DNA of 64,000 nt, taken from Candidatus Dojkabacteria bacterium. GTDB lineage: Bacteria; Patescibacteriota; Dojkabacteria; J137. Positions 2,174-30,161 of this stretch are shown piece by piece (the first letter of the stretch is position 1; each line of letters opens with the position of its first letter). The notes below the pieces were generated by a model, which did no database searches, had not been told where the DNA came from, and saw nothing but the letters and a program-made list of their open reading frames with translations. Location: NCBI GenBank assembly GCA_025993875.1, contig JAMQHH010000013.1:8459-72458 (forward strand), given 5' to 3'. The translations under genes were made by a program, and so were the position numbers.

Positions 2174-3283
2174 ATGCCCAAGGTACTCAAGTCTTTTAGG
2201 AAAATAACAAAAAGAGCTTCTTCAATGCAGGCCGATATAAAGGCAAGGACTGTTTATAAAATGTACTGGGGAAGAACTTCTTTATACAGGTTAATTACCC
2301 ATGTTTTTCTGGTTTTCTTAACATCAACAACGCTTCTAACCGGTATCTATTCTAGATTTAGTAGTTCGCACTCCGACACACTTGTTGCTGGTTTCCTGCC
2401 CGTAGGCAATGTAGACTTGGTAGAACAAGGCGGAAATATCGAGGTATTAAATGTTCAAAATCCCAATATATATTTTAGGGTTTTTGACTATACTGTTTTA
2501 AACGGTGATACTTTAGATACTATAGCCGATAAATATTCCGTTAAAAAAGACACTATAAAATGGGCAAATCCTAAAGTAGATTATTATAGCGAAGTAATTA
2601 TCCCGGGAGATATACTAAGAATTCCCGAAATAAACGGAGTATTATACGAAGTAAAAGAAGGGGATACGCTCGACTCGGTAGCGCAAAAAACTTCTGGGGA
2701 TCGTTTTGTAATAGCAGAATTAAATTACCTTGAGGCTCCGCAATATAATTTAAACCCCGGAAGTAAAATTTTAATTCCAGATGGGTTTTTGCCTCCTCCA
2801 CCAACACCCCCACCTCTAATTCCAATGCAAAATAAATGGAGGGTTCCTACCAACGAAGGGATAAACATTGCTTATGCTTCGGAATATGCCGGAATACCTA
2901 TTGTTAACCCCCTTTCTAACCCCGATTGCACCGGATATATTTTTACAAGGGGCTGGGCAGTTTACTGGGACGGGTTTCATAATGGTCTAGATTTAGCTAA
3001 ATATGGAGGCTGCCCTATTAGGGCTATTGCTTCTGGTACTGTAATTTCGGCTGGCTGGAACTACTGGGGTGGGGGCTATACCGTAGTGATCGATCATGGT
3101 ACAGGCTTGGTTTCTCAATATTTGCACGGCGAAACTATATGGGTATCGGCAGGAGAATATGTATCTGCCGGACAGGAGATTATGTACATGGGAACAACCG
3201 GCAATTCTACAGGTGTTCACCTTCACTTAACCTTAAAAATAGACAATGTAGCTATAGACCCTACAACATATGTACCTTACTAA
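2174..3283 (+). CDS. LysM-domain M23 (lysostaphin-type) peptidoglycan endopeptidase
   Basis: It has an N-terminal TM segment and LysM-like repeats (DTLDTIADKY..., GDTLDSVAQK...). The C-terminal M23 region shows its signatures HNGLDLA ... VIDHG ... GNSTGVHLHL. Confidence 0.85.
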   Translation: MPKVLKSFRKITKRASSMQADIKARTVYKMYWGRTSLYRLITHVFLVFLTSTTLLTGIYSRFSSSHSDTLVAGFLPVGNVDLVEQGGNIEVLNVQNPNIYFRVFDYTVLNGDTLDTIADKYSVKKDTIKWANPKVDYYSEVIIPGDILRIPEINGVLYEVKEGDTLDSVAQKTSGDRFVIAELNYLEAPQYNLNPGSKILIPDGFLPPPPTPPPLIPMQNKWRVPTNEGINIAYASEYAGIPIVNPLSNPDCTGYIFTRGWAVYWDGFHNGLDLAKYGGCPIRAIASGTVISAGWNYWGGGYTVVIDHGTGLVSQYLHGETIWVSAGEYVSAGQEIMYMGTTGNSTGVHLHLTLKIDNVAIDPTTYVPY

Positions 3284-3488
3284 GCCTACACAAAATTAGA
3301 TACGGAAAATTTACGCAAACACAGCTTTTTTAGCTAATATAATAGCTATCTGAAAGCATAAAAAATAGACGCAAATCATTTCTTGTAATAGTTTATCGGT
3401 AAAATTTAATGCAGAAAATGTAAAAAGGTAATATAATTTTACTCTGAGTGGCTTAAACCCAAGCGTTATAGTATAATTTCAAATTAAT

Positions 3489-3561
3489 GCCCTTGTAGCT
3501 CAATGGATAGAGCAATCCCGTCCTAAGGGAGAGGTTGAAGGTTCAACTCCTTCCAAGGGCA
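3489..3561 (+). tRNA. tRNA-Arg (anticodon CCT)
   Basis: A 73-nt cloverleaf: acceptor GCCCTTG/CAAGGGC, D-arm GCTC..GAGC, anticodon loop GTCCTAA, and T-arm GAAGG-TTCAACT-CCTTC. A TATAAT sits at about 3465-3476 upstream. Confidence 0.85.
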
Positions 3562-3591
3562 ATTAGATTTATTTATTATTTCGTTTTTTTT

Positions 3592-4200
3592 ATGAAATCT
3601 TCAACACAGTTTTACGAAAGAACCCTTATTCTTCTAAAACCGGATACTGTTCAAAGAGGTCTAATTGGAGAAATTATTTCGAGGTTCGAAAAAAAAGGAT
3701 TAAAAATAGTAGCAATGAAGATGATATGGCCGACAAAAAAAATGGCCGAAAAACATTACTATTGGTCGGATGAAGAAAAAACGAAAACGGGTAGTAGAAC
3801 AATAGATATTTACAAAGAAAAAGGGCTTCCAATAACTAAAACTGCAATTGAGTATGCTGAAAATGTTCAAAAAAGGCTATCTAAATTTTTAGTTGCCGGG
3901 CCAATAGTAGCCATGGTAATAGAAGGTGCTCATGTTATTCAGCATGTAAGAAAATTAGTAGGACATGGGAGTCCCTTGCAAGCAGATGTTGGCACAATAA
4001 GAGCAGACTTTACAATCGATTCATATCTCCTAGCAGACGAGGCAGATAGAGTCGCAAGAAATTTAGTGCACGCATCGAGCAGTGTAGAAGAAGCGGAAAG
4101 AGAGATTAAAGTTTGGTTTAAAGAGGAGGAGATAAGTGATTATGAACTTGCAATCGAAAGAATTCTTTATTCCAAGGAGTGGGAACAAAAAAACAGCTAA
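3592..4200 (+). CDS. ndk: Nucleoside diphosphate kinase-like protein with an internal insertion and a C-terminal extension
   Basis: NDK hallmarks are present: LILLKPD, the Kpn-loop GTIRADF, and NLVHASSSVEEAEREIKVWF (catalytic His retained). The product is about 200 aa against the usual about 140. The start was moved from the track's 3535, which overlaps the tRNA, to the in-frame Met at 3592. Confidence 0.75.
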   Translation: MKSSTQFYERTLILLKPDTVQRGLIGEIISRFEKKGLKIVAMKMIWPTKKMAEKHYYWSDEEKTKTGSRTIDIYKEKGLPITKTAIEYAENVQKRLSKFLVAGPIVAMVIEGAHVIQHVRKLVGHGSPLQADVGTIRADFTIDSYLLADEADRVARNLVHASSSVEEAEREIKVWFKEEEISDYELAIERILYSKEWEQKNS

Positions 4201-4217
4201 TTGGTTTCTAAAATGAA

Positions 4218-5234
4218 ATGCTTAAATCAATATTCAATCCAAGGCAGTTTGCAATAGATTTTGGCACTGCTAATTGTATTATTATCGAAAAAGGTAAAGG
4301 AATAGTTTTAAGTGAGCCTACAGTTGTTGCAGTCTCCCCAAAAGAAAAAAAAGTAATATCTATTGGGTCTGATGCAAAAGAGATGCTCGGTAAAGTTCCC
4401 GAAGGGCTGGAGGCCAGAAGACCATTAAAAAATGGAGGTATAGCCAATTACAGACTGGCAGAGGCACTTTTAAGAAAATTTTTCGATCGAATACTAGGTC
4501 CTTTGCGAATAGTTCGCCCTGTTGTTATAGTTTCTGTGCCGGCTAGCATGAACTCGGTCGAAGAGAGGGCAATTATTAAGGCGTTAAGATCACTAAGAGT
4601 TGCTAAGATTTACTTATTTCCCGAGCCCGTTGCCGCCGCGGTTGGCGCAAAACTTCCAATACATACTTCATCCGGTAATTTTATTGCTAATCTTGGTGCA
4701 GGAACGGCGGAAATTGCTGTTTTATCTTTAAACGGAATAGTCGCAATGGAATCTCATAGGGGAGCAGGGGATGCAATAAATAGTGAAATAATAAATTATG
4801 TTAAAGGGGCTCATAATCTAATTATCGGTGAACAAACCGCCGAAAAACTTAAAATCGAAATTGGGTATGCCGTGGATCCCAAAGAAAGGTCTTTAGTTGT
4901 TAGCGGGAAAGATGCAAAAAGCGGACAGCCCGAAACCAAGGAGATCTTTGCAAAGGAACTTATAAGGCCGGTTCGAAACGTTCTCGACTATATAGTCGAA
5001 TCTATTAAAAGAGTTTTAGCTAAAACACCTCCGGAACTGGTTTCGGATATAGTTGACAGAGGAATAGTGTTAAGCGGCGGAACTGCGCTAGTTAACAATA
5101 TAGATATCTATTTATCTAATCAATTAGGAATAAATGCACACGTTGTAGACGAACCACTAAAGGCGGTGGTTAAAGGTTTGAACATAGTTCTAGATAACAT
5201 AGACGATTTTAAAAGAAGTGTGAGATATGAATAA
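4218..5234 (+). CDS. Actin-like ATPase, MreB family (paralog 1)
   Basis: The phosphate-1 motif AIDFGTAN is present, along with LSEPTVVAV and the SGGTA adenosine motif. This is the Hsp70/actin fold, matching MreB overall. Confidence 0.8.
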   Translation: MLKSIFNPRQFAIDFGTANCIIIEKGKGIVLSEPTVVAVSPKEKKVISIGSDAKEMLGKVPEGLEARRPLKNGGIANYRLAEALLRKFFDRILGPLRIVRPVVIVSVPASMNSVEERAIIKALRSLRVAKIYLFPEPVAAAVGAKLPIHTSSGNFIANLGAGTAEIAVLSLNGIVAMESHRGAGDAINSEIINYVKGAHNLIIGEQTAEKLKIEIGYAVDPKERSLVVSGKDAKSGQPETKEIFAKELIRPVRNVLDYIVESIKRVLAKTPPELVSDIVDRGIVLSGGTALVNNIDIYLSNQLGINAHVVDEPLKAVVKGLNIVLDNIDDFKRSVRYE

Positions 5235-5250
5235 AAAAATAGCTAACTTT

Positions 5251-6678
5251 TTATTTTTTGCTTGGATCAATTATAAATTTTGTAAGATCTTTTTTCCCAA
5301 TAATAATTTTGTATTCAAGATTTTCTCTTTTACTTGCTGTTGCATTAGAGAAGATTTCTATGCCATCGATAATCATTTTAACATCAATAATTGGTCTTAA
5401 CGAAAAACCGTGTGCAGATTTTACGATTAATCTTGACTTAATAAAATTATTTTCTTTTATATCACCGGATTTAATTTTTAAATCTCTTTCTTCACTAACT
5501 TTTTTTGCGCTTTCAAAACTACTAAAAAGTGGGTAATTAAATGAATTGAAATAGCTTATTGAGTCGGCATATCCTAATTCTATAAGAATATCTTCATTTA
5601 GTGAGGTTCTATCAGCGCCTGTATCAATTTTAGCTGGTACTTCAATTTCTTTGCCGTTAATTCCTATTAATTTTACCTTCTCTATTATCCCAATAACCTT
5701 TTTACCCGAAATCTGTTCAATCTCTTCTTCAATCTCGCCGCCGAAAAGGTCTTTTCCCAGTCTAATACCTTGATCGGTAGATTTCACTTTTAAATTTTTA
5801 GCTTTTTCAAGTCTCCAGAGAAGACCATCGTTATTTGCCAACTGAATAGAAAGTCCCGGTCTAGCATTTAACTCTACAGTAACCGGTCCGTTGTCTCTAT
5901 CAATTAAAAAATCTATTGCACCATAATTAAGATGAGTAATTTTACTTGCCTCAATTGCTAGTCTTAAAATTCTATCCCAATATGGAATTTTTATACCTGA
6001 TAAAGAGAGATTTTTTCCCGGAATAAAATTTATAGCTTTTGATTTTCCAATAATGGCGTGTGTAGTTTTCCCAACAGAAATGTCTATTCCCGCACCTATG
6101 GCCCCTAAATCCAAGTTGGCCTTTCCTTCCGATTCGACAGTTGGAATTCTTATGTAGCTCATTATAGGGATTTTGTTAAAAACAATTATTCTTATATCTG
6201 GGGCTCCCTTATAGGCAAAATTTTTAAAATTTTTATGTGTTTTAACTCTTTCTTCAATAAGGACGTAATCAGACTGGTTAAACAGGGAATACCTTCCATC
6301 TATAATATCCTTGGCTAAAGCTTTAAGATCAGTTATAGTATATTTTTTCCCCGACGCACCGATCCATTTATTTTCTTTATTTCTATTAAAAATTATCTCA
6401 ATGCCTCCGCCTCTGGCACCTTTGGACGGCTTAATAACAAATGATTTAGGAAGAGTTTCAAAATCATAGCTCTCCACATCACTATAATTTTTAAAAACTT
6501 TTATAGTTTTAGGTACTGGAATAGCTGCTTTACTTAGATATTTTTTGCTTAACAGTTTATTATCGGCAATTTTTTTTGCATGCTTAAGATTATAAGGTCT
6601 AATAAAATAGAGCCCTCTTTGGTTTAATCCAAGTATCTCATTTGATCTTTTTATTGCCTTAATTAGTTTCTTAATCAT
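5251..6678 (-). CDS. RimK-like ATP-grasp amidoligase fused to a C-terminal retropepsin-like (RimB/DUF785-type) aspartic-protease domain
   Basis: The N-terminal 300 aa or so have ATP-grasp features (KPSKGARGGGIE, ELNARPG). The C-terminal region (about residues 330-475) carries IEVPAKIDTGADRTSL, a D-T/S-G-A catalytic motif of the retropepsin-like 'ATP-dependent zinc protease' family. Confidence 0.65.
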   Translation of the reverse strand: MIKKLIKAIKRSNEILGLNQRGLYFIRPYNLKHAKKIADNKLLSKKYLSKAAIPVPKTIKVFKNYSDVESYDFETLPKSFVIKPSKGARGGGIEIIFNRNKENKWIGASGKKYTITDLKALAKDIIDGRYSLFNQSDYVLIEERVKTHKNFKNFAYKGAPDIRIIVFNKIPIMSYIRIPTVESEGKANLDLGAIGAGIDISVGKTTHAIIGKSKAINFIPGKNLSLSGIKIPYWDRILRLAIEASKITHLNYGAIDFLIDRDNGPVTVELNARPGLSIQLANNDGLLWRLEKAKNLKVKSTDQGIRLGKDLFGGEIEEEIEQISGKKVIGIIEKVKLIGINGKEIEVPAKIDTGADRTSLNEDILIELGYADSISYFNSFNYPLFSSFESAKKVSEERDLKIKSGDIKENNFIKSRLIVKSAHGFSLRPIIDVKMIIDGIEIFSNATASKRENLEYKIIIGKKDLTKFIIDPSKK

Positions 6679-7372
6679 TTTCCCTAAATATTATCTTTCT
6701 AAATCTAATATATTCAGTTAATCTTAATCCTAAAAATCTCCCAACAACTATATTAAGTAAAATTACTATTAGTATTGATAGAGGCCAGTTATAGAACAAA
6801 TTTGATACAACGTTTATTGATATTATAATGTAACATATTCCACTAGTAATCAGGGTTTCTATTGCTACGATTACAGCAAAGCGCACATTTTTTTTAGCTA
6901 TCATAGCCATAATTGATTCTCCTAGTAGTATTGCTATTACTATCGTTAACGGCCCCGCATAAATAATGTTTGTAACATCAAGATATGCAAAAAACACAAT
7001 TATCAGTACAAAAATCATTGAGAGACCAGTTATGATTAATGATAGTTTAGAAACATAGTGCAGCCTTATACCTTTTGTAAGTAAGTAAAAGATAATTGAA
7101 AAGACGCAAACAGCCAAAAATAGAAAAAGTCCGATAATAAAACCTAAAATAAAGTTTTGCTGTGAAGCAGAAATATAGCTTAATTTAAAAAATACAAAGG
7201 TTAAAAGTAAAGGCGCATATGGAGTTAAAGTTCTTAGACCTACTATATACCTTAAAATACTTATAATTGTTGCAACAACAGGAACTAAAACAATAAATTG
7301 CAACATTTGTCTTACCATTAATGGATCAACCCCCTGTGATCTTTCGATAAAAAAATTTACTATGCTTTCCAT
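6671..7372 (-). CDS. Stand-alone 7-transmembrane protein (7TM partner of an ATP-grasp/protease system); start overlaps the downstream ATP-grasp gene by 8 nt
   Basis: The 233-aa product has seven predicted hydrophobic helices and no soluble domain. It overlaps the next gene by 8 nt, so the two are translationally coupled. Confidence 0.55.
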   Translation of the reverse strand: MESIVNFFIERSQGVDPLMVRQMLQFIVLVPVVATIISILRYIVGLRTLTPYAPLLLTFVFFKLSYISASQQNFILGFIIGLFLFLAVCVFSIIFYLLTKGIRLHYVSKLSLIITGLSMIFVLIIVFFAYLDVTNIIYAGPLTIVIAILLGESIMAMIAKKNVRFAVIVAIETLITSGICYIIISINVVSNLFYNWPLSILIVILLNIVVGRFLGLRLTEYIRFRKIIFREND

Positions 7373-7422
7373 TATTTTTTTATAAAAAATATTTTTAGGT
7401 AAGTTTTCTTATTCTTAAAAAA

Positions 7423-7458
7423 AACAGGATAGAGTAGTGTTAAGCTATCTATCCTGTT
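7423..7458 (-). terminator. Rho-independent terminator downstream of rplL (perfect 11-bp stem, 12-nt loop, U-run on the minus strand)
   Basis: AACAGGATAGA at 7423-7433 pairs with TCTATCCTGTT at 7448-7458. The plus-strand A-run at 7417-7424 gives a U-tract on the minus-strand transcript. Confidence 0.6.
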
Positions 7459-7480
7459 TTGTAATAACGATTAAAATATT

Positions 7481-7873
7481 TTATTTAATCTGCACTTTTG
7501 CGCCTTCGCTCTCTAATTCTTTCTTAAGTGCCTCGGCATCTTCTTTCTTTACTCCCTCTTTTATTGCTTTAGGAGCAGATGGAGAAATTGCATCTACTAG
7601 ATCTTTGGCTTCTTTTAAGCCTAATCCTGTTGCATTTTTTACAACCTTAATAACTCCTATTTTATTGCTTCCTGCATCAGTTAAAACCACATCAAACTCG
7701 GTTTTTTCTTCTACCGGTTCGGCTGAAGCTGCTGCTGGCATCGCTGCCATAGCCATTGGAGCTGCTGCTTTTACATCAAAAGTTTCTTCCAGGGATTTTT
7801 TTAGCTCGAAAGCTTCTACCACTGAAAGCTCTTTTATTGCATCAACAATTTTTTGAACTTTGTCGGTTGCCAT
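7481..7873 (-). CDS. rplL: 50S ribosomal protein L7/L12
   Basis: [21 protein letters not shown]..., an Ala-rich hinge, and the C-terminal domain. The start was trimmed to the internal Met of the track ORF. Confidence 0.9.
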
Positions 7874-7907
7874 TTTTGAATTAATAAGAAATAAATTAAA
7901 ATAATGA

Positions 7908-8438
7908 TTATTTAAAAGACTGATCAATTATAGACATATACCCCCTTACCGGATCTTCTACAACATTTAAAATACTTGTAATTGAGCTTTCCAATATACC
8001 AAGTATTGCAGCAACACTTCCTTTTATATCTGGCATTTCTGCCAATTCACTTGCTTGCAAGGCAGTTAACAGAGCTTTGTTTAATATTCCTGCAACAATT
8101 TGTACTTTTACTCCTCCTTCTTTTGTAGTTGTACCATCAATAAATTTCTTTAGTGCTTTTGAAGGAGTTACAATATCCTCTGTTAAAAATAAAACGGCAT
8201 GCTCTCCAAATTCGAGCGATTCGATAGCAGGTAAATTACTTTCTTCCAGAGCTCTTCGCATAATTGAATTTTTTACAATATTCAATTTAGCATTTAATTT
8301 AGCTATCTCTTTTCTAAATTCTGTAGCTTCCTCTGCAGTTACCCTATTTGGTTTGATTACAATTACTCCTTCTGCTTTGTCCAGGAGTTTTTTATACTCT
8401 TCAAGTAATTTAGTTTTTTGCTTTTTTGTTTTAGCCAC
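7908..8438 (-). CDS. rplJ: 50S ribosomal protein L10
   Basis: The product is L10-like along its full length, and the gene sits in the conserved rplJ-rplL order. Confidence 0.88.
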
Positions 8439-8589
8439 TTTAAGCTTTAATAAAAATTAAAAAGACGCCCCAGGCGCCCTAAACACTCTTTAGTTTTATG
8501 CAATCATTTTACAACTGCACAATTATAACTAAAGACTAATTTTAAGCGTCTCGGTAGGACTTAATCTGCCTACTGTCTTAGACTTGAAA

Positions 8590-9276
8590 TTACAAACTTT
8601 TGATTATACCACTAATGTCCAGTTTTATGCCACTTCCCATTGTAGGTGAAACAGTTATTTTCTTAAAAGGATTAACATTAATTCTTTTTGCTTCAGCGTA
8701 AATTGCCTTTACTGCTTCGAATATATTGGCTGAAATTTGCTCTGGTGCCATATCTAACTTTGCAACCTTTAGCCTAATTACATTTTGATCCTGGGCAGAT
8801 TTAAAATTAGTCTTTCCTGCTTTAAAGCTATGTACTGCCTTTTCAATATCTTCTGTTACTGTTCCATTTTTAGGATTTGGCATTAAACCTTTGGGACCAA
8901 GAGTTTTTCCTAGTTTTACCATTTTAGGCATCATGGAAGGCGTTGCAATTAACACATCAAAATCAATATCGCCTTTCTCAATCTCTTCTACTAAACTTGT
9001 TCCTGCTTTTGATGCGCCAGCAGCAATTGCCCTGGCTTTATCTTTTTCTTCGCATATTACTACAACTTTCTTTTGACTTCCCATTTGGAAAGGAAAATTG
9101 ATGCTTCCTCTAAAAACTTCGTTTTTGCTCTTTTCTTTTAGGTTAAGCACTACATCCAAGTCTACACTCCCTACAAATTTTGAGCGGGATAGCGAAGGGA
9201 GTAATGTACCTGCCTGGTCGATAGAATATGTTTTGTTTAAATCAACTTTCTCTGTGTTGTTTGCTTTATTTTTCAT
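8590..9276 (-). CDS. rplA: 50S ribosomal protein L1
   Basis: Full-length similarity to L1 (228 aa), in the conserved rplK-rplA order. Confidence 0.93.
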   Translation of the reverse strand: MKNKANNTEKVDLNKTYSIDQAGTLLPSLSRSKFVGSVDLDVVLNLKEKSKNEVFRGSINFPFQMGSQKKVVVICEEKDKARAIAAGASKAGTSLVEEIEKGDIDFDVLIATPSMMPKMVKLGKTLGPKGLMPNPKNGTVTEDIEKAVHSFKAGKTNFKSAQDQNVIRLKVAKLDMAPEQISANIFEAVKAIYAEAKRINVNPFKKITVSPTMGSGIKLDISGIIKSL

Positions 9277-9294
9277 AAATTTCTTAAAAATATC

Positions 9295-9720
9295 TTATTT
9301 AATAACTTCTACACCTAAGCTTTTAGCTGTTCCTTCTACAATTTTCAAAGCAGATTCTGGGTTAACTGTATTTAAATCCGGCATTTTCTTTTTGGCAATT
9401 TCTTCTAAATCACTTATTTTTATCTTTCCTACCTTGTCTTTATTGGGAGTTCCAGAACCTTTGGCTAATTTAATTTTTTTCTTTATCATACCTGCAACTG
9501 TTGGTTGTTTTAAAACCATTTTATAAGTTCTGTCTTTAAAAACTGTAACAATTACAGGGATCTCATCTTCTCCCATTGCAGAAGTTTTTGCATTAAACTC
9601 CTGGCAAAACTGTTGGATAGGAATTCCATTTTGGCCTAAAACCGGTCCAATTGGTGGCGCGGGATTAGCTTTTCCAGCTGGAATTTGTAATTTTAAAACA
9701 TTTATTATCTCTTTTGCCAT
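9295..9720 (-). CDS. rplK: 50S ribosomal protein L11
   Basis: MAKEIINVLKLQIPAGKANPAPPIGPVLGQ, the canonical L11 N-terminus. Confidence 0.95.
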   Translation of the reverse strand: MAKEIINVLKLQIPAGKANPAPPIGPVLGQNGIPIQQFCQEFNAKTSAMGEDEIPVIVTVFKDRTYKMVLKQPTVAGMIKKKIKLAKGSGTPNKDKVGKIKISDLEEIAKKKMPDLNTVNPESALKIVEGTAKSLGVEVIK

Positions 9721-9730
9721 ATATTATTAA

Positions 9731-10297
9731 TTAAATTTTATTTACTTGTAAAAAATCTAAAACTACCGGAGTTTCTCTATCAAAAATCGAAAGTAAAACA
9801 GTTACCTGTCCTTTGGATTCGTTAATCTCTTGGATATTTCCTATAAAGTCTTTAAATGGTCCTTCTATAACCTTAACAGCATCTCCCACCGAAAATTTTG
9901 TATTAAAAATAGGAGTTTTTTGAACTTTTGTGTAAGCCAGAATACTTTCGGCCTGTTTTTCGCTTAAAGGAGAAAGGTATTTTGAATTTGAAGTCATTCC
10001 CACAAATCCCAAAATGCCATCGGTATTTCTTATTAAGTGGATAGCCTCGTCGGTTGGGTTCATTTTTACCAAAATGTACCCGGGGAAAATTCGCTCCTCT
10101 ATTGTATGTTTTTTTCCTTGTTTAATCACTACCTTTTCTTGTATCGGTACCAAAACCTCAGTAATAACCGACTCAAGATTATTAGCTTTTATTCGCTGTT
10201 CCAAAAGTAAGGCAGTCCTTTTCTCTTTTGTAGAGGTGCTGCTTATAATGTACCATTTTTGTTCTATTTTATTTTCTACACTATTAGTATTATCCAT
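9731..10297 (-). CDS. nusG: Transcription antitermination/elongation factor NusG
   Basis: An NGN domain (KWYIISSTSTKEK...) plus a C-terminal KOW (VGDAVKVIEGPFKDFIGNIQEI). Confidence 0.9.
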   Translation of the reverse strand: MDNTNSVENKIEQKWYIISSTSTKEKRTALLLEQRIKANNLESVITEVLVPIQEKVVIKQGKKHTIEERIFPGYILVKMNPTDEAIHLIRNTDGILGFVGMTSNSKYLSPLSEKQAESILAYTKVQKTPIFNTKFSVGDAVKVIEGPFKDFIGNIQEINESKGQVTVLLSIFDRETPVVLDFLQVNKI

Positions 10298-10306
10298 TTG
10301 AGTTTT

Positions 10307-10531
10307 TTAAATCCCAAATAATATAAAATTTCTGGCCGAAACAAGTATCTGATCCGCCAAAAGTAAAAAGATAGTTCCTGCTCCCAAAATTATTAGCATT
10401 AAAAAAGCATATCTTAATGTTTTTCCTCTAGAAAGCCATTCTACAAATTTCAATTCTTTAAGAACACTCTTTGCTCCCAAAATTACTAAACTTGGTAAAG
10501 AGATTATTTTTTTTACAATATTTCTTATCAT
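10307..10531 (-). CDS. secE: Preprotein translocase subunit SecE
   Basis: A 74-aa single-TM protein immediately upstream of nusG, with a SecE-like C-terminal TM. Confidence 0.7.
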   Translation of the reverse strand: MIRNIVKKIISLPSLVILGAKSVLKELKFVEWLSRGKTLRYAFLMLIILGAGTIFLLLADQILVSARNFILFGI

Positions 10532-11008: not shown

Positions 11009-11899
11009 TTATGGGTAAATTATATATTTGCTGCTGTATTTGGTTAATTTTTCTACTTTTATCGTTAAATTACCAGAAATATCTGTTCTAAAAATTGAGA
11101 CATTGTGAGCGGTAAGTTTTTCGAGTACCTCGTTGGAAGGGTGATTATAGCTGTTATTCTTGCCGGCCGAGATTATAGAATCTTCTGGACGTATTAACTG
11201 TAAAAAGGAGTTACTGGTCGAAAACTTGCTTCCATGGTGGCTTATTTTCAATACATTAATATCCTGGTTTATGTTTTTCGCCAATGTTTCTTCTTCCTGG
11301 GTAGGTAAGTCGCCCATAGCCAGCAATTTAAACCCGCAGTATTCAACCAGTATAGAAATAGAACTGTTGTTAGATTTACCTGTCTCTTCAGACATATTCG
11401 GAGGCCATAAAATTTTAAGTATTACTTCGTCGAGTATAATTTCCGCACCCTTACTAACCGCAAAATTAACGATTTTATGTGCTGCAATTTTTTCTTTTAG
11501 CTTTAACCAAGGCCCTTTTTTTTCTAGGCTCTTGTTTATAAAGATTGATTTAATCTGACAATAATCAATTAAATCTATAAAACCTTCGATATGGTCTTTG
11601 TCTGAGTGAGTAGCAACTGCTAAATCAATACTGCATTTTCTTCCCTCAAATAACTCACCAATTTTTTGAGATATTAAATTTCCCGATCCTGCATCAACTA
11701 AAACAGTTTTGTTAGTCGGGGTTCTTATAAAAAGTGAATCCCCCTGCCCAATATCAATTGCCGTAATCACTAAATTATCATTTATCAATGACCTTAAGTC
11801 GAGGGAAAGATGGTTTAGCAGTGGCACCAAGATAGCTGTAACAACAATTGCTAATTTGCTAAGAAGTTTTAAATTTGATGAGATTTTTTTTAGCTTCAT
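11009..11899 (-). CDS. ComEC/Rec2 C-terminal metallo-beta-lactamase domain protein (separate ORF with its own N-terminal TM)
   Basis: MBL motifs are present: IDIGQGDS, HSDKDHIEG, and ISHHGS with the terminal NHPSNEVL typical of the ComEC MBL domain. It overlaps the upstream ORF by 41 nt in another frame. Confidence 0.8.
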   Translation of the reverse strand: MKLKKISSNLKLLSKLAIVVTAILVPLLNHLSLDLRSLINDNLVITAIDIGQGDSLFIRTPTNKTVLVDAGSGNLISQKIGELFEGRKCSIDLAVATHSDKDHIEGFIDLIDYCQIKSIFINKSLEKKGPWLKLKEKIAAHKIVNFAVSKGAEIILDEVILKILWPPNMSEETGKSNNSSISILVEYCGFKLLAMGDLPTQEEETLAKNINQDINVLKISHHGSKFSTSNSFLQLIRPEDSIISAGKNNSYNHPSNEVLEKLTAHNVSIFRTDISGNLTIKVEKLTKYSSKYIIYP

Positions 11900-13307
11900 T
11901 TCTATTTAAGGCTAAAACAAGTAAAGAAATAAAAATTATAATAATAAGAATTACAATGCTTTTACTTTTGCTAAATTCAAGATCAGAAACAATCTCGGCA
12001 ACTTTAATTACTAACTTAACTAAAAGATTAATCCAAAAAAATATAATGTTGTTTACTAAATCGAATCCTATAAAATCTGCAAGTATACTGATTAGAGATG
12101 CAACTGTTATAAAAGGTAAAAGTGGCAAAACAACAATATTTGTAAGAATTCCTAAAACGGAAAATTCCCCGAAAACTTTGTAAGTAAGAGGAAGTGTAAA
12201 TACGTTAATAGCAGATGTAGTTACAATAATGGACTTAAGGCTATCCCAAAGATTACTTTGAATTTCGTTAGAACTAGTAAATGCTGCAATGCTAATAGTT
12301 GCCCCAATACTTAGTAAAAAACTGACGTTGATAAGAGCATAAGGGAAAAGAATTAGAAAAAGGAACACCACAACTGAAAAGATATCTAATTTAGATATCT
12401 TTCTACCAAAAAACAATGCTACTGAGAAAACAGATAACATTAGCATAGCTCTTAGTGCTGGGAGATTGTGAACGCCAACCAGAAAAAAGTAGAAGGTACA
12501 AGATGATAATGAAAATATCAGATTGATTCTTCTGTTAGTAAATATAAAAACCGAATTAAGAAGGGAGAAAATTAACGAAAAATTAAACCCCGAAACAGAG
12601 ATAATATGGGAGATTCCAGAGTTTTTGAATATCTCTAACATATTTTTATTCATAGCAGAATCCTTTCCAAGTAATATCCCATTAATAAGATCTGAATTTG
12701 GTGGATATAGATATTTTTTAAAAATACCAAAAAGTCTTTCCTTAATATTGCTAATAAAACTAAATGGAGTTTTTTCTAGTTCAACAATTTGTTCTGCCTT
12801 AAAATATCGATTAATTCCCCGGCTTTTTAGATATGAAATATAATCAAAATCGCTTCTGTTTATTATCTCTTTGTATCTTCCATATAAAGTAATTTTATCC
12901 CAGTTATTAATAACAGGGTATGTTGGAAGCTCCACCAGGATATTTATTCCCAATTTATAGGTAATTACTGCCTCGGCAGCATATTCGTTGTTAGTTACTT
13001 CCATAACAATTCCACTTATCTTCTCATATCTCTCTAAGCCAGTAGAATTAAAGTTGTAGCTACTATCAATTAATAACATACTTGTAAAACCTACCACTGT
13101 ACCAGTTAATATAAAAATCGCACTTTTTATTAATTTTCTTTTTAAAAAGGGAAAAAATATTATTAAAAGAAGTGGGTTTTTAAAAAATAAAAGATTTCCC
13201 GAAACTACACCTAGTATAAATAGGGTAGGGTACTTTTCTTTGGCTTTTAGTAATCCATCCAAAAATTTATGCTGTAGGGATTTAATAAAAATCAAAATAG
13301 CTATCAT
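11859..13307 (-). CDS. comEC: ComEC/Rec2 DNA-internalisation channel, membrane 'competence' domain portion
   Basis: Polytopic membrane protein with the ComEC competence-domain signature (SGISHIISVSGFNFSLIF). Confidence 0.8.
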   Translation of the reverse strand: MIAILIFIKSLQHKFLDGLLKAKEKYPTLFILGVVSGNLLFFKNPLLLIIFFPFLKRKLIKSAIFILTGTVVGFTSMLLIDSSYNFNSTGLERYEKISGIVMEVTNNEYAAEAVITYKLGINILVELPTYPVINNWDKITLYGRYKEIINRSDFDYISYLKSRGINRYFKAEQIVELEKTPFSFISNIKERLFGIFKKYLYPPNSDLINGILLGKDSAMNKNMLEIFKNSGISHIISVSGFNFSLIFSLLNSVFIFTNRRINLIFSLSSCTFYFFLVGVHNLPALRAMLMLSVFSVALFFGRKISKLDIFSVVVFLFLILFPYALINVSFLLSIGATISIAAFTSSNEIQSNLWDSLKSIIVTTSAINVFTLPLTYKVFGEFSVLGILTNIVVLPLLPFITVASLISILADFIGFDLVNNIIFFWINLLVKLVIKVAEIVSDLEFSKSKSIVILIIIIFISLLVLALNRNEAKKNLIKFKTS

Positions 13308-16689: not shown

Positions 16690-16762
16690 GCCATTTTAGC
16701 TCAGTTGGTAGAGCAACTGTTTTGTAAACAGTAGGTCCTGGGTTCGAGTCCCAGAAATGGCT
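16690..16762 (+). tRNA. tRNA-Thr (anticodon TGT)
   Basis: Cloverleaf with acceptor GCCATTT/AAATGGC, anticodon stem ACTGT/ACAGT, loop TTTGTAA, and a TTCGAGT T-loop. Confidence 0.85.
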
Positions 16763-16765
16763 GTT

Positions 16766-16849
16766 CCGGAGATGGCGGAGTGGTCAATCGCACCTGACTG
16801 TAAATCAGGCGCCCTTAGGGCTTCGGAGGTTCAAATCCTTCTCTCCGGA
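16766..16849 (+). tRNA. tRNA-Tyr (anticodon GTA), class II with long variable arm
   Basis: Anticodon loop CTGTAAA, a long variable arm CGCCCTTAGGGC, and a TTCAAAT T-loop. The acceptor is CCGGAGA/TCTCCGG. Confidence 0.75.
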
Positions 16850-16859
16850 TATATTTTTA

Positions 16860-16932
16860 GCCGCTGTAGCTCAGCTGGTAGAGCACACCCATGGTAAGGG
16901 TGGGGTCTGCGGTTCAAGTCCGCATAGCGGCT
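16860..16932 (+). tRNA. tRNA-Thr (anticodon GGT)
   Basis: Acceptor GCCGCTG / (T)AGCGGC, anticodon stem CACCC/GGGTG, loop ATGGTAA, and a TTCAAGT T-loop. Confidence 0.85.
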
Positions 16933-16990
16933 TTCTTGCAAATTTTAAGCCTCAGATATTTAGTATAATAAGTAAGTTAACCTAAGAATA

Positions 16991-29873: not shown

Positions 29874-30161
29874 ATGAAATACGAGTTGATGATACTGGCA
29901 AAGCCACTTACCAACGAAGATGTAAGAGATAAGGTTTTATCGAAAATAGAGAAAAAAATTATTTCCGAAAAAGGTAGTTTTAAGGTAGTAGAATTTATTG
30001 GAAAGAGGCTTTTAGCTTATCCTGTAAAGAAATTTAAGGAGGGAGTATATATTTTATGTAGGGTCGAAATCTCGGCCGAAAAAGCAACTGAATTAAAAAA
30101 AATAATAAGTTTAACGCCAGAGGTTTTAAGATTTTTACTTCTTAAAGAAGAGAATCTTTAA
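29874..30161 (+). CDS. rpsF: 30S ribosomal protein S6
   Basis: MKYELMILAKP..., 95 aa, in the rpsF-ssb-rpsR context. Confidence 0.85.
   Translation: MKYELMILAKPLTNEDVRDKVLSKIEKKIISEKGSFKVVEFIGKRLLAYPVKKFKEGVYILCRVEISAEKATELKKIISLTPEVLRFLLLKEENL

Follow-up and report, generated by a model that had tools for sequence, protein, structure and literature searches.

A 64,000 nt stretch of Candidatus Dojkabacteria bacterium contig JAMQHH010000013.1 (positions 8,459 to 72,458; hereafter the window, with coordinates counted from its first nucleotide) carries two overlapping genes on the minus strand that are considered here as a possible variant of the Rlo system of Proteobacteria. One encodes a stand-alone seven-transmembrane (7TM) protein of 233 amino acids (aa) (coordinates 6671 to 7372; identified from the open reading frame (ORF) list and a PF14402 match), and the other a soluble protein of 475 aa (coordinates 5251 to 6678; ORF list), bifunctional by its domains, in which an ATP-grasp ligase is fused to a retropepsin-like protease. 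An initial annotation of the sequence had placed the two genes here with an overlap of 8 nt, and the coordinates and the octamer (ATGATTAA; coordinates 6671 to 6678, minus strand, read directly from the sequence) proved to be exact. The start codon of the fusion gene is inside the 3' end of the 7TM gene, and the overlap suggests that translation of the two is coupled; the stop and start codons also overlap, or are a few nt apart, in most of 77 related loci. As the ORFs are long for a genome of 33% GC, give strong hidden Markov model scores and are conserved in more than 100 genomes, chance ORFs can be excluded.

The N-terminal part of the 475 aa protein (aa 1–312; coordinates 5743 to 6678, minus strand) is an RloC-type ATP-grasp amidoligase domain. 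It matches ATPgrasp_ST (PF14397; aa 24–293, E 7.8e-56, 189.7 bits against a cut-off of 31.4) and TIGR02291, 'alpha-L-glutamate ligase-like', at 245.4 bits, which is under the hypothetical-equivalog cut-off of 314.2. The domain aligns end to end with Legionella RloC (37% identity, E 2e-61), which stops exactly at the residues aligned to KDLF312, where an acidic linker starts in the fusion. The initial annotation had called this domain a ligase of the RimK or alpha-L-glutamate ligase type; an ATP-grasp enzyme resembling glutamate ligases was recovered, but not RimK proper, as the RimK family model TIGR00768 gave 47.6 bits against a cut-off of 143.4. In an alignment of 121 sequences, which was also the basis of an AlphaFold2 model of the whole protein (mean pLDDT 93.0; all structure models are of monomers only), the ATP-grasp residues K83, D256, E269, N271 and R273 are invariant. 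The best Foldseek matches of the ATP-grasp half were ArgX/LysX, RimK and cyanophycin synthetase. From the invariant residues and a fold nearest to that of C-terminal-Glu ligases, we infer that the ligase is probably catalytically competent.

The C-terminal part (aa 327–475; coordinates 5254 to 5700, minus strand) is a retropepsin-like aspartic protease domain of the PF05618 (RloA/RimB) family, in keeping with the assignment first made from its D-T-G-A motif. PF05618 scored 25.0 bits, under its cut-off of 27, when the full-length protein was scanned, but 29.7 bits (E 7e-07), above the cut-off, with the C-terminal 155 aa alone. PF05618 was matched by each of the 22 family members aligned, and gag-asp_proteas by 16 of these as well. 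The NCBIfam models for the RloA1, RloA2 and RloA3 retropepsins match aa 323–475, a search of PDB sequences with the family profile recovered RloA (9g58; E 1.5e-6, aa 325–469), 9g59 and Legionella Lpg0085 (2pma), and hhalign paired the protease profile with Legionella RloA at 97.6% probability (E 2.8e-12). A single-sequence search of representatives with aa 301–475 gave 368 matches, 79 of them at E ≤1e-10, in which fragments, fusions of ~470 aa, long forms of 690–930 aa and stand-alone proteases were mixed.

As the top 50 Foldseek matches of the full-length model were all ATP-grasp proteins, a separate model of aa 321–475 (pLDDT 94.7) was needed to recover retropepsins. Its matches were 9g58 (RloA), 2pma (Lpg0085) and 9g59 (RloA2), followed by the HIV-1 and simian foamy virus proteases, all with probability 1.00. 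The TM-scores were moderate (0.47–0.70), plausibly because of a CPR-specific (candidate phyla radiation) two-helix insert at aa 362–404 and of disordered flaps in the crystals. The active-site motif in the translation is KIDTGA (K350-I-D352-T-G-A355; coordinates 5614 to 5631, minus strand), D-[TS]-G-A was found in 120 of 120 homologues, and K350, D352, G354, A355, R428, R451 and G461 are invariant among the 121 sequences. The C-terminal hydrophobic-hydrophobic-Gly motif is also conserved, as I-I-G461-K. By alignment and predicted structure, D352 is the catalytic Asp and the single-lobe, beta-rich retropepsin fold of clan AA is confirmed, which is the outcome of the structural check that the initial annotation had proposed.

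RloA cuts runs of at least 8 Glu in vitro via K46, R114 and R137, which coordinate polyGlu, and the R114A and R137A substitutions abolish its function (PMC12239564). K350, R428 and R451 of the fusion protein align with the K-x-D-T-G, x-R-P and D/N-R-x motifs of the RloA structures, and the 23 residues between R428 and R451 equal the R114–R137 spacing. The three are thus the likely counterparts of K46, R114 and R137, and the match speaks for the protease having kept a preference for acidic peptides. The fusion protein is without a hydrophobic segment or signal peptide (maximum 19-residue hydropathy 1.09) and its ligase needs ATP; hence the protease acts in the cytoplasm. The surface or secreted substrate that had been envisaged for the system is therefore not favoured, the protease being joined to a cytoplasmic ATP-dependent ligase.

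Between the two domains is a Glu-rich linker (aa 313–326, GGEIEEEIEQISGK in translation; coordinates 5701 to 5742, minus strand) that is specific to the fusion and missing from stand-alone RloC. Its consensus, G-G-E-I-E-E-E-I-E-x-I-S-G-K, is almost invariant, with G313, G314 and I316 the same in all 121 sequences and E315, E317, E318 and E321 at least 90% conserved. Residues 311–330 are the sole soft region of the full-length model, with a pLDDT of 65–72 in the linker, which is predicted to be flexible. An acidic, nearly invariant and apparently flexible GGEIEEEIE segment beside a protease whose family favours Glu-rich sequence could be read as a processing site, with the retropepsin cutting the linker to free ligase and protease as in retroviral Gag-Pol. 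However, RimB needs 5–6 contiguous Glu (PMC11957791) and RloA 8 (PMC12239564), interrupting residues abolish cleavage, and the linker has at most three in a row; the protease would also be cytoplasmic either way, with little functional change. Self-cleavage of the linker is unlikely given this published need for 5–8 contiguous Glu, and polyprotein-style autoprocessing as the purpose of the architecture is very improbable.

The 233 aa protein matches 7TM_transglut (PF14402; 54.1 bits, cut-off 25) and aligns only to positions 298–506 of the 508 in the RloB model NF052267, which is the 7TM part. It shares 22% identity with aa 305–500 of Legionella RloB (E 6e-9), and the tail motif G-x-R-L-x-E-x-x-R-F is common to both. 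The protein begins ~20 residues ahead of TM1, and Pfam gave no match to the inactive-transglutaminase domain PF14400 in it. A search for 7TM homologues gave at least 23 matches, and the 7TM survey rests mainly on 80 genomic loci; the 23 close homologues and 73 homologues from these loci are 209–277 aa long and contain PF14402 alone. A tblastn search of low sensitivity, with the N-terminal 300 aa of one Legionella RloB as the query, recovered nothing transglutaminase-like from the window or from 83 related loci. By sequence, the 233 aa protein is the RloB 7TM module without the periplasmic inactive-transglutaminase domain, and the minimal architecture originally described for the pair holds.

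Hydropathy analysis identified seven transmembrane segments, and because the K/R-rich loops are all on one side, the N-terminus is predicted to be outside and the C-terminus in the cytoplasm. This topology fits RloB, where a periplasmic domain precedes the 7TM module, and a haloarchaeal fusion (see below) in which the 7TM C-terminus runs into the ligase. Among 73 7TM sequences, conservation clusters on the cytoplasmic loops (R41, G45, R47, Y106, K109 and K161) and in the tail (G211, G215, R217, E220, R223 and F224), and the intramembrane position E152 is acidic in all. The cytoplasmic tail was considered as a Glu acceptor and rejected, its extreme C-terminus being variable (K, Q, D, L and others) and not acidic.

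In P. aeruginosa, RloABC governs hypo-osmotic tolerance, biofilm, cell shape and beta-lactam sensitivity (Lormand et al., mBio 2025, PMC12239564). RloA is a secreted retropepsin, RloB an inactive transglutaminase joined to a 7TM module and RloC a cytoplasmic ATP-grasp protein; deletion of rloB or rloC suppresses the hypo-osmotic lethality of losing all three RloA paralogues, and 96% of RloB matches were in Proteobacteria (PMC12239564). The initial annotation had connected the pair with a known association of ATP-grasp, retropepsin and 7TM-transglutaminase proteins, and the families are indeed those of RloABC. Its statement that no substrate or product had been defined is partly outdated, given the cleavage of 8 or more Glu by RloA in vitro and the rloB and rloC suppressors (PMC12239564).

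A direct comparator was available in the rloABC locus of Legionella adelaidensis plasmid NZ_LR134414 (locus L084), which encodes an RloA of 170 aa with a signal peptide (MRLVLFFIFSWTFLCGSTMA), an RloB of 508 aa with PF14400 and PF14402, and an RloC of 314 aa. The window shares with Rlo loci a PF14397/TIGR02291 ligase, a PF14402 7TM module with the same tail motif, a PF05618 protease with K-x-D-T-G-A and two Arg residues, and a membrane-protein gene followed by a ligase gene with the stop and start overlapping. However, the protease in the window follows the ligase C-terminally in one polypeptide and has no signal peptide, whereas RloA is separate, secreted and encoded upstream, and the 7TM protein is without the N-terminal transmembrane helix and PF14400 periplasmic domain of RloB. 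The CPR host, the helical insert in the protease and the extra ligases encoded at many CPR loci are further differences. We put at about even the chances that the pair represents a form of the Rlo system reduced to two genes and found across CPR, in which a ligase docked at the membrane makes Glu-rich chains and a peptidase built into the same protein opposes it by trimming or releasing them.

The distribution of the pair was examined in public sequence data. A protein search with the fusion gave 3,221 matches, the best 120 clusters being 460–509 aa long and 50–90% identical, with named members from Candidatus Dojkabacteria/WS6 or Patescibacteria. The exact 475 aa protein recurs with the same neighbours in 30 blocks of public assemblies. 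A scan with two peptide patterns, in which each species was represented by one genome, identified at least 114 genomes, and 80 loci were kept (numbered with the prefix L below); these counts are lower bounds, and taxon names were taken from record titles. The 80 loci are titled Dojkabacteria, Moranbacteria, Paceibacteria/Parcubacteria, Woesebacteria, Roizmanbacteria and Minisyncoccia, though some labels of metagenome-assembled genomes are evidently unreliable. L002, L004, L009, L035, L047, L075 and others are titled 'uncultured Candidatus Saccharibacteria', 'Gammaproteobacteria' or 'Bdellovibrionales'; the contigs show the CPR-type synteny of the Dojkabacteria, Woesebacteria or Moranbacteria loci, and the labels are probably wrong.

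A 7TM gene is located directly upstream of the fusion gene, on the same strand, at all 77 assessable loci, the ligase gene being at a contig edge in the remaining three of the 80. The complete upstream 7TM proteins are 213–253 aa long, a few others being truncated at the end of a contig. Similarity of the 7TM partner to PF14402 and its conservation beside the ligase, both proposed as checks when the pair was first described, were thus recovered, and as the adjacency extends over several CPR phyla with differing flanks the partnership is obligate. The gene order is secE-nusG-rplK-rplA-rplJ-rplL-7TM-fusion in Dojkabacteria and ruvC-7TM-fusion-(RimK-like)n-PBP1 in Moranbacteria, and the pair is beside suf-like genes in Paceibacteria. 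As the flanking genes vary by lineage while the two genes stay adjacent, the pair travels as a unit. A second copy of the fusion gene, sometimes truncated or on the opposite strand, was seen in L007, L011, L069 and L072, indicating local duplication.

In the window (coordinates 7481 to 10531, minus strand) and in L001–L033, with at least 30 loci of Dojkabacteria type, the pair follows secE-nusG-rplK-rplA-rplJ-rplL in place of rpoB-rpoC. This position would suit modification of the ribosome, in which the pair would polyglutamylate S6 or another ribosomal protein and then trim the tail. In the Rim system, RimK extends S6 with poly-Glu tails, which the cytoplasmic protease RimB shortens, and RimB also stimulates RimK activity four-fold (Little et al., JBC 2025, PMC11957791). 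A RimBK hybrid with the protease (RimB residues 1–163) at the N-terminus is known from Flavobacteriales, Rhodobacterales and Desulfotalea (PMC11957791). The pair likewise combines a putative ATP-grasp Glu ligase with a cytoplasmic retropepsin-like endopeptidase in a single natural polypeptide, which in RimBK is proteolytically active, and RimK is among the best structural matches of the ligase. However, the ligase is of the RloC type, far under the RimK cut-off, and no Rim system includes a 7TM partner, which is obligate here. In RimBK the protease precedes a true RimK, whereas in the window it follows an RloC-type ligase, and because the domain order is reversed and the ligase type differs the two fusions are independent. 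The ribosomal-gene synteny is also confined to one lineage, the pair being after ruvC or beside suf-like genes elsewhere.

The target that RimK extends, an S6 with an acidic Glu-Glu C-terminus, is not available here either. The S6 encoded in the window (rpsF; coordinates 29874 to 30161, plus strand) is short, at 95 aa, and ends ...LLKEENL with no acidic C-terminal extension, and it is an unlikely substrate. Moreover, a terminator/attenuator-like hairpin followed by U8 (coordinates 7417 to 7460, minus strand) separates rplL from the 7TM gene. This hairpin is strong by RNA folding (-17.6 kcal/mol; z = -7.0 versus shuffled sequences) and occupies the classical position of the rplL-rpoB attenuator, suggesting that the pair is set apart, at least to some degree, from the ribosomal-protein operon. 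It was revealed by direct reading and folding, a simple promoter/terminator scan having overlooked it, most likely owing to its loop. In 13 of 72 loci, a hairpin of -8 kcal/mol or stronger followed by at least 6 T was found in the 160 nt preceding the 7TM gene, with ~10 of the 13 resembling a clean hairpin and T-run. A Rim-type modification of the ribosome is, overall, improbable.

Additional genes follow the pair at many loci. In 43 of 80, the pair is succeeded by one to three RimK-family ligases (TIGR00768, 148.2 bits, above the cut-off), and seven loci add a stand-alone Mur-type ligase that best matches the M domain of cyanophycin synthetase (253 bits; MurE 124 bits). DUF3541 genes and, in five loci, a GT2 glycosyltransferase are also near the pair. 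RimK-type or other added genes are found downstream of the fusion at, for example, L006 (coordinates 7811 to 9079), L018 (7413 to 8339) and L071 (5244 to 6206). The pair in the window has no RimK-family, Mur-type, DUF3541 or GT2 accessory gene. CphA1 uses an ATP-grasp domain to extend a poly-amino-acid backbone and has a Mur-ligase-like M domain, and the extended CPR loci encode a separate M-domain-like protein beside RimK-family ligases; CphA1, however, is a single soluble enzyme with no protease or 7TM partner, and the window has no M-domain gene. Together, the accessory genes look like a split cyanophycin-synthetase-like toolkit, and their presence points to a more elaborate polyamide in the genomes with extra ligases.

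These genes bear on two further readings. In the first, the pair modifies an envelope polymer, with the 7TM protein binding a lipid-linked sugar, peptidoglycan or exopolysaccharide precursor to which the ligase adds amino acids that the protease edits before export. PF14397 is named 'Sugar-transfer associated ATP-grasp', the cell-shape, beta-lactam and osmotic phenotypes of Pseudomonas Rlo mutants are compatible with effects on the cell wall, and the accessory ligases resemble Mur and cyanophycin-synthetase M domains. A glycosyltransferase is present in the five loci with GT2, a class A penicillin-binding protein follows the pair in Moranbacteria, and the pair adjoins mreB in the window. However, the minimal loci, including the window, have no glycosyltransferase or Mur-like gene, and neither the penicillin-binding protein nor mreB is a conserved neighbour, the flanks varying among CPR phyla. 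The Mur-like accessory protein is far nearer to the cyanophycin-synthetase M domain than to MurE, and the protease has kept the polyGlu-binding residues. We consider envelope-polymer modification rather unlikely.

In the second, the pair is a self-contained synthase-translocase for a non-ribosomal acidic polyamide. The minimal form would make poly-alpha-glutamate and, where RimK- and CphA-M-type ligases are added, the polymer would be branched and cyanophycin-like; the 7TM protein would serve for its export as a channel, and the retropepsin would release the chain. This is a speculative proposal and quite unlikely to be correct. If true, CPR bacteria would have a new envelope or extracellular polymer, and the inactive-transglutaminase domain of the proteobacterial system would exist to partner the secreted protease.

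Three long variants of the fusion, of 779–816 aa, were found among the CPR loci (L037, coordinates 5995 to 8334; L048, 5995 to 8340; L078, 644 to 3094). In all three, the retropepsin is degenerate (A-L-I-D-T-S-R) and its basic residues are lost, and a MATCAP/QEGLA metallocarboxypeptidase domain (PF08014, TIGR02421) with HExxH and EEGLA motifs is present at the C-terminus. Several more database proteins of ~780–930 aa are likewise longer than the fusion. The TTL/TTLL ligases and MATCAP-type carboxypeptidases also pair an ATP-grasp amino-acid ligase with a peptidase that undoes the addition, but they are separate enzymes with eukaryotic cytoskeletal substrates and no membrane partner, and the protein in the window uses a retropepsin. 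The exchange for MATCAP in the long variants, together with the trimming of RimK products by RimB and the suppression of RloA loss by rloB or rloC deletion, supports antagonism between ligase and peptidase.

A fusion of another kind, 7TM_transglut to ATPgrasp_ST, was identified in haloarchaea by tblastn of plasmids. An ORF of 584 aa in Halobacterium sp. DL1 plasmid CP007061 (L085, coordinates 3170 to 4924, plus strand), unlisted in the PLSDB gene table and located beside transposases, encodes a 7TM module whose C-terminus continues straight into the N-terminus of a ligase from the same family. Others are at L086 (coordinates 6001 to 7752) and L087 (6001 to 8070), and ~70 protein clusters contain the fusion, e.g. 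in Haloarcula, Natronorubrum, Salinigranum and Halomarina. The 7TM module is without a transglutaminase domain, as in the window, and the tail (R-L-K-E-Y-Y-R-F) and the N-terminal motif of the ligase are shared (e.g. Haloarcula salina, Natronorubrum sediminis). However, 7TM module and ligase form one polypeptide, and the haloarchaeal fusions have no transglutaminase or protease domain and no adjacent peptidase gene. A small overlapping ORF (77–123 aa) is always 3' of the fusion and encodes a hydrophobic product in the one that was translated; the two with domain calls gave no Pfam match.

The initial annotation had left open whether the module is common outside Proteobacteria; it is widespread across CPR, and its 7TM-ligase core recurs, fused, in haloarchaea. 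In a rough neighbour-joining (NJ), distance-based tree of the ATP-grasp cores, the CPR fusions, the stand-alone RloC proteins (including that of Legionella) and the haloarchaeal fusions formed three clean clades, and the MATCAP-bearing variant nested within the Dojkabacteria clade. The single CPR clade is consistent with one origin of the ligase-protease fusion.

A compact two-gene module in different contexts across phyla, with a related gene beside transposases on a Halobacterium plasmid, might also be anti-phage defence or the cargo of a mobile element. However, PADLOC gave no match, the position of the pair is stable within lineages, and the ATP-grasp tree is consistent by clade. In the window, no integrase or transposase flanks the pair and GC around it shows no anomaly. 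This explanation is so improbable that it can be set aside.

The architectures form a series, from a secreted protease, a transglutaminase-7TM protein and a ligase in Proteobacteria, to a 7TM protein and a ligase-protease in CPR, a 7TM protein and a ligase-degenerate protease-MATCAP in the CPR variants, and a 7TM-ligase in haloarchaea. The series would make the 7TM module and the ligase the functional core, in contact at the cytoplasmic face, with the peptidase an exchangeable antagonist and the transglutaminase-like domain going with a periplasmic protease. That the secreted protease and the transglutaminase domain, both periplasmic, were lost or moved together in CPR suggests that the two work as a pair.

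Under the Rlo-variant reading preferred here, the 7TM protein, oriented N-out/C-in, would dock the fusion enzyme on the cytoplasmic face of the membrane via its cytoplasmic loops and its G-L-R-x-x-E-Y-x-R-F tail. Docking at this face is suggested by the conservation on the 7TM loops and tail, the tail motif shared with RloB and the haloarchaeal 7TM-ligase fusions. The ATP-grasp domain would spend ATP to build alpha-linked Glu-rich chains, free or on an acceptor, and the retropepsin domain would dimerise, as in clan AA homodimers that supply two catalytic Asp, and cut poly-Glu stretches, as an eraser or controller of chain length, or possibly act as a ligase activator, as RimB does for RimK. 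All of the chemistry would be cytoplasmic, unlike that in Pseudomonas with its secreted protease. The 7TM protein may then pass the product outward or, alternatively, gate the enzyme by the state of the membrane or osmotic conditions.

Several points weigh against this interpretation. That the RloC-type ligase would use Glu is deduced solely from the protease that partners it and from its family likeness, and with a TIGR02291 score below the equivalog cut-off the function of the ligase may have diverged. The 43-residue helical insert of the protease, missing from RloA, could alter its specificity. A cytoplasmic protease also breaks the sole genetic model, under which the product of RloB and RloC is removed by a protease in the periplasm, and the CPR system may thus differ. 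Docking is drawn from conservation patterns and the logic of the fusions, and the missing peptidase beside the haloarchaeal fusions indicates that a peptidase is not universally required. No ORF in the 64 kb window has a run of at least 5 D/E or an acidic tail that would make its product a possible substrate.

RloABC is a known system, and what is new here is the fusion, the cytoplasmic protease, the lost transglutaminase domain and the range in CPR. The literature searched had no mention of this architecture or of these families in CPR, and the proteins of the pair bear only automatic names. As genomes of ~1 Mb in the CPR, whose bacteria are mostly uncultured, retain the module, a basic physiological role can be argued. 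The CPR form has only two proteins, with ligase and protease in one soluble polypeptide, which is convenient for reconstitution, and it could help to reveal what the Rlo system makes.

Downstream of the fusion gene in the window is a directly convergent mreB, as in 11 other loci. A gene for a LysM and M23 peptidase protein with a proline-rich PPPPTPPP linker (coordinates 2174 to 3283, plus strand) is near rho, ndk and mreB, and other Dojkabacteria loci also have homologues of it (cluster c17) close to the pair. Elsewhere in the window, ComEC is apparently split (coordinates 11009 to 13307, minus strand) into a Competence domain protein of 482 aa and a metallo-beta-lactamase domain protein of 296 aa, encoded by overlapping ORFs. 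Three tRNA genes, in the order Thr(TGT), Tyr(GTA) and Thr(GGT), are tightly clustered at coordinates 16690 to 16933 (plus strand), and the last of them, Thr(GGT), scored only 41.6 bits with Rfam in a partial alignment to the model (positions 5–66).

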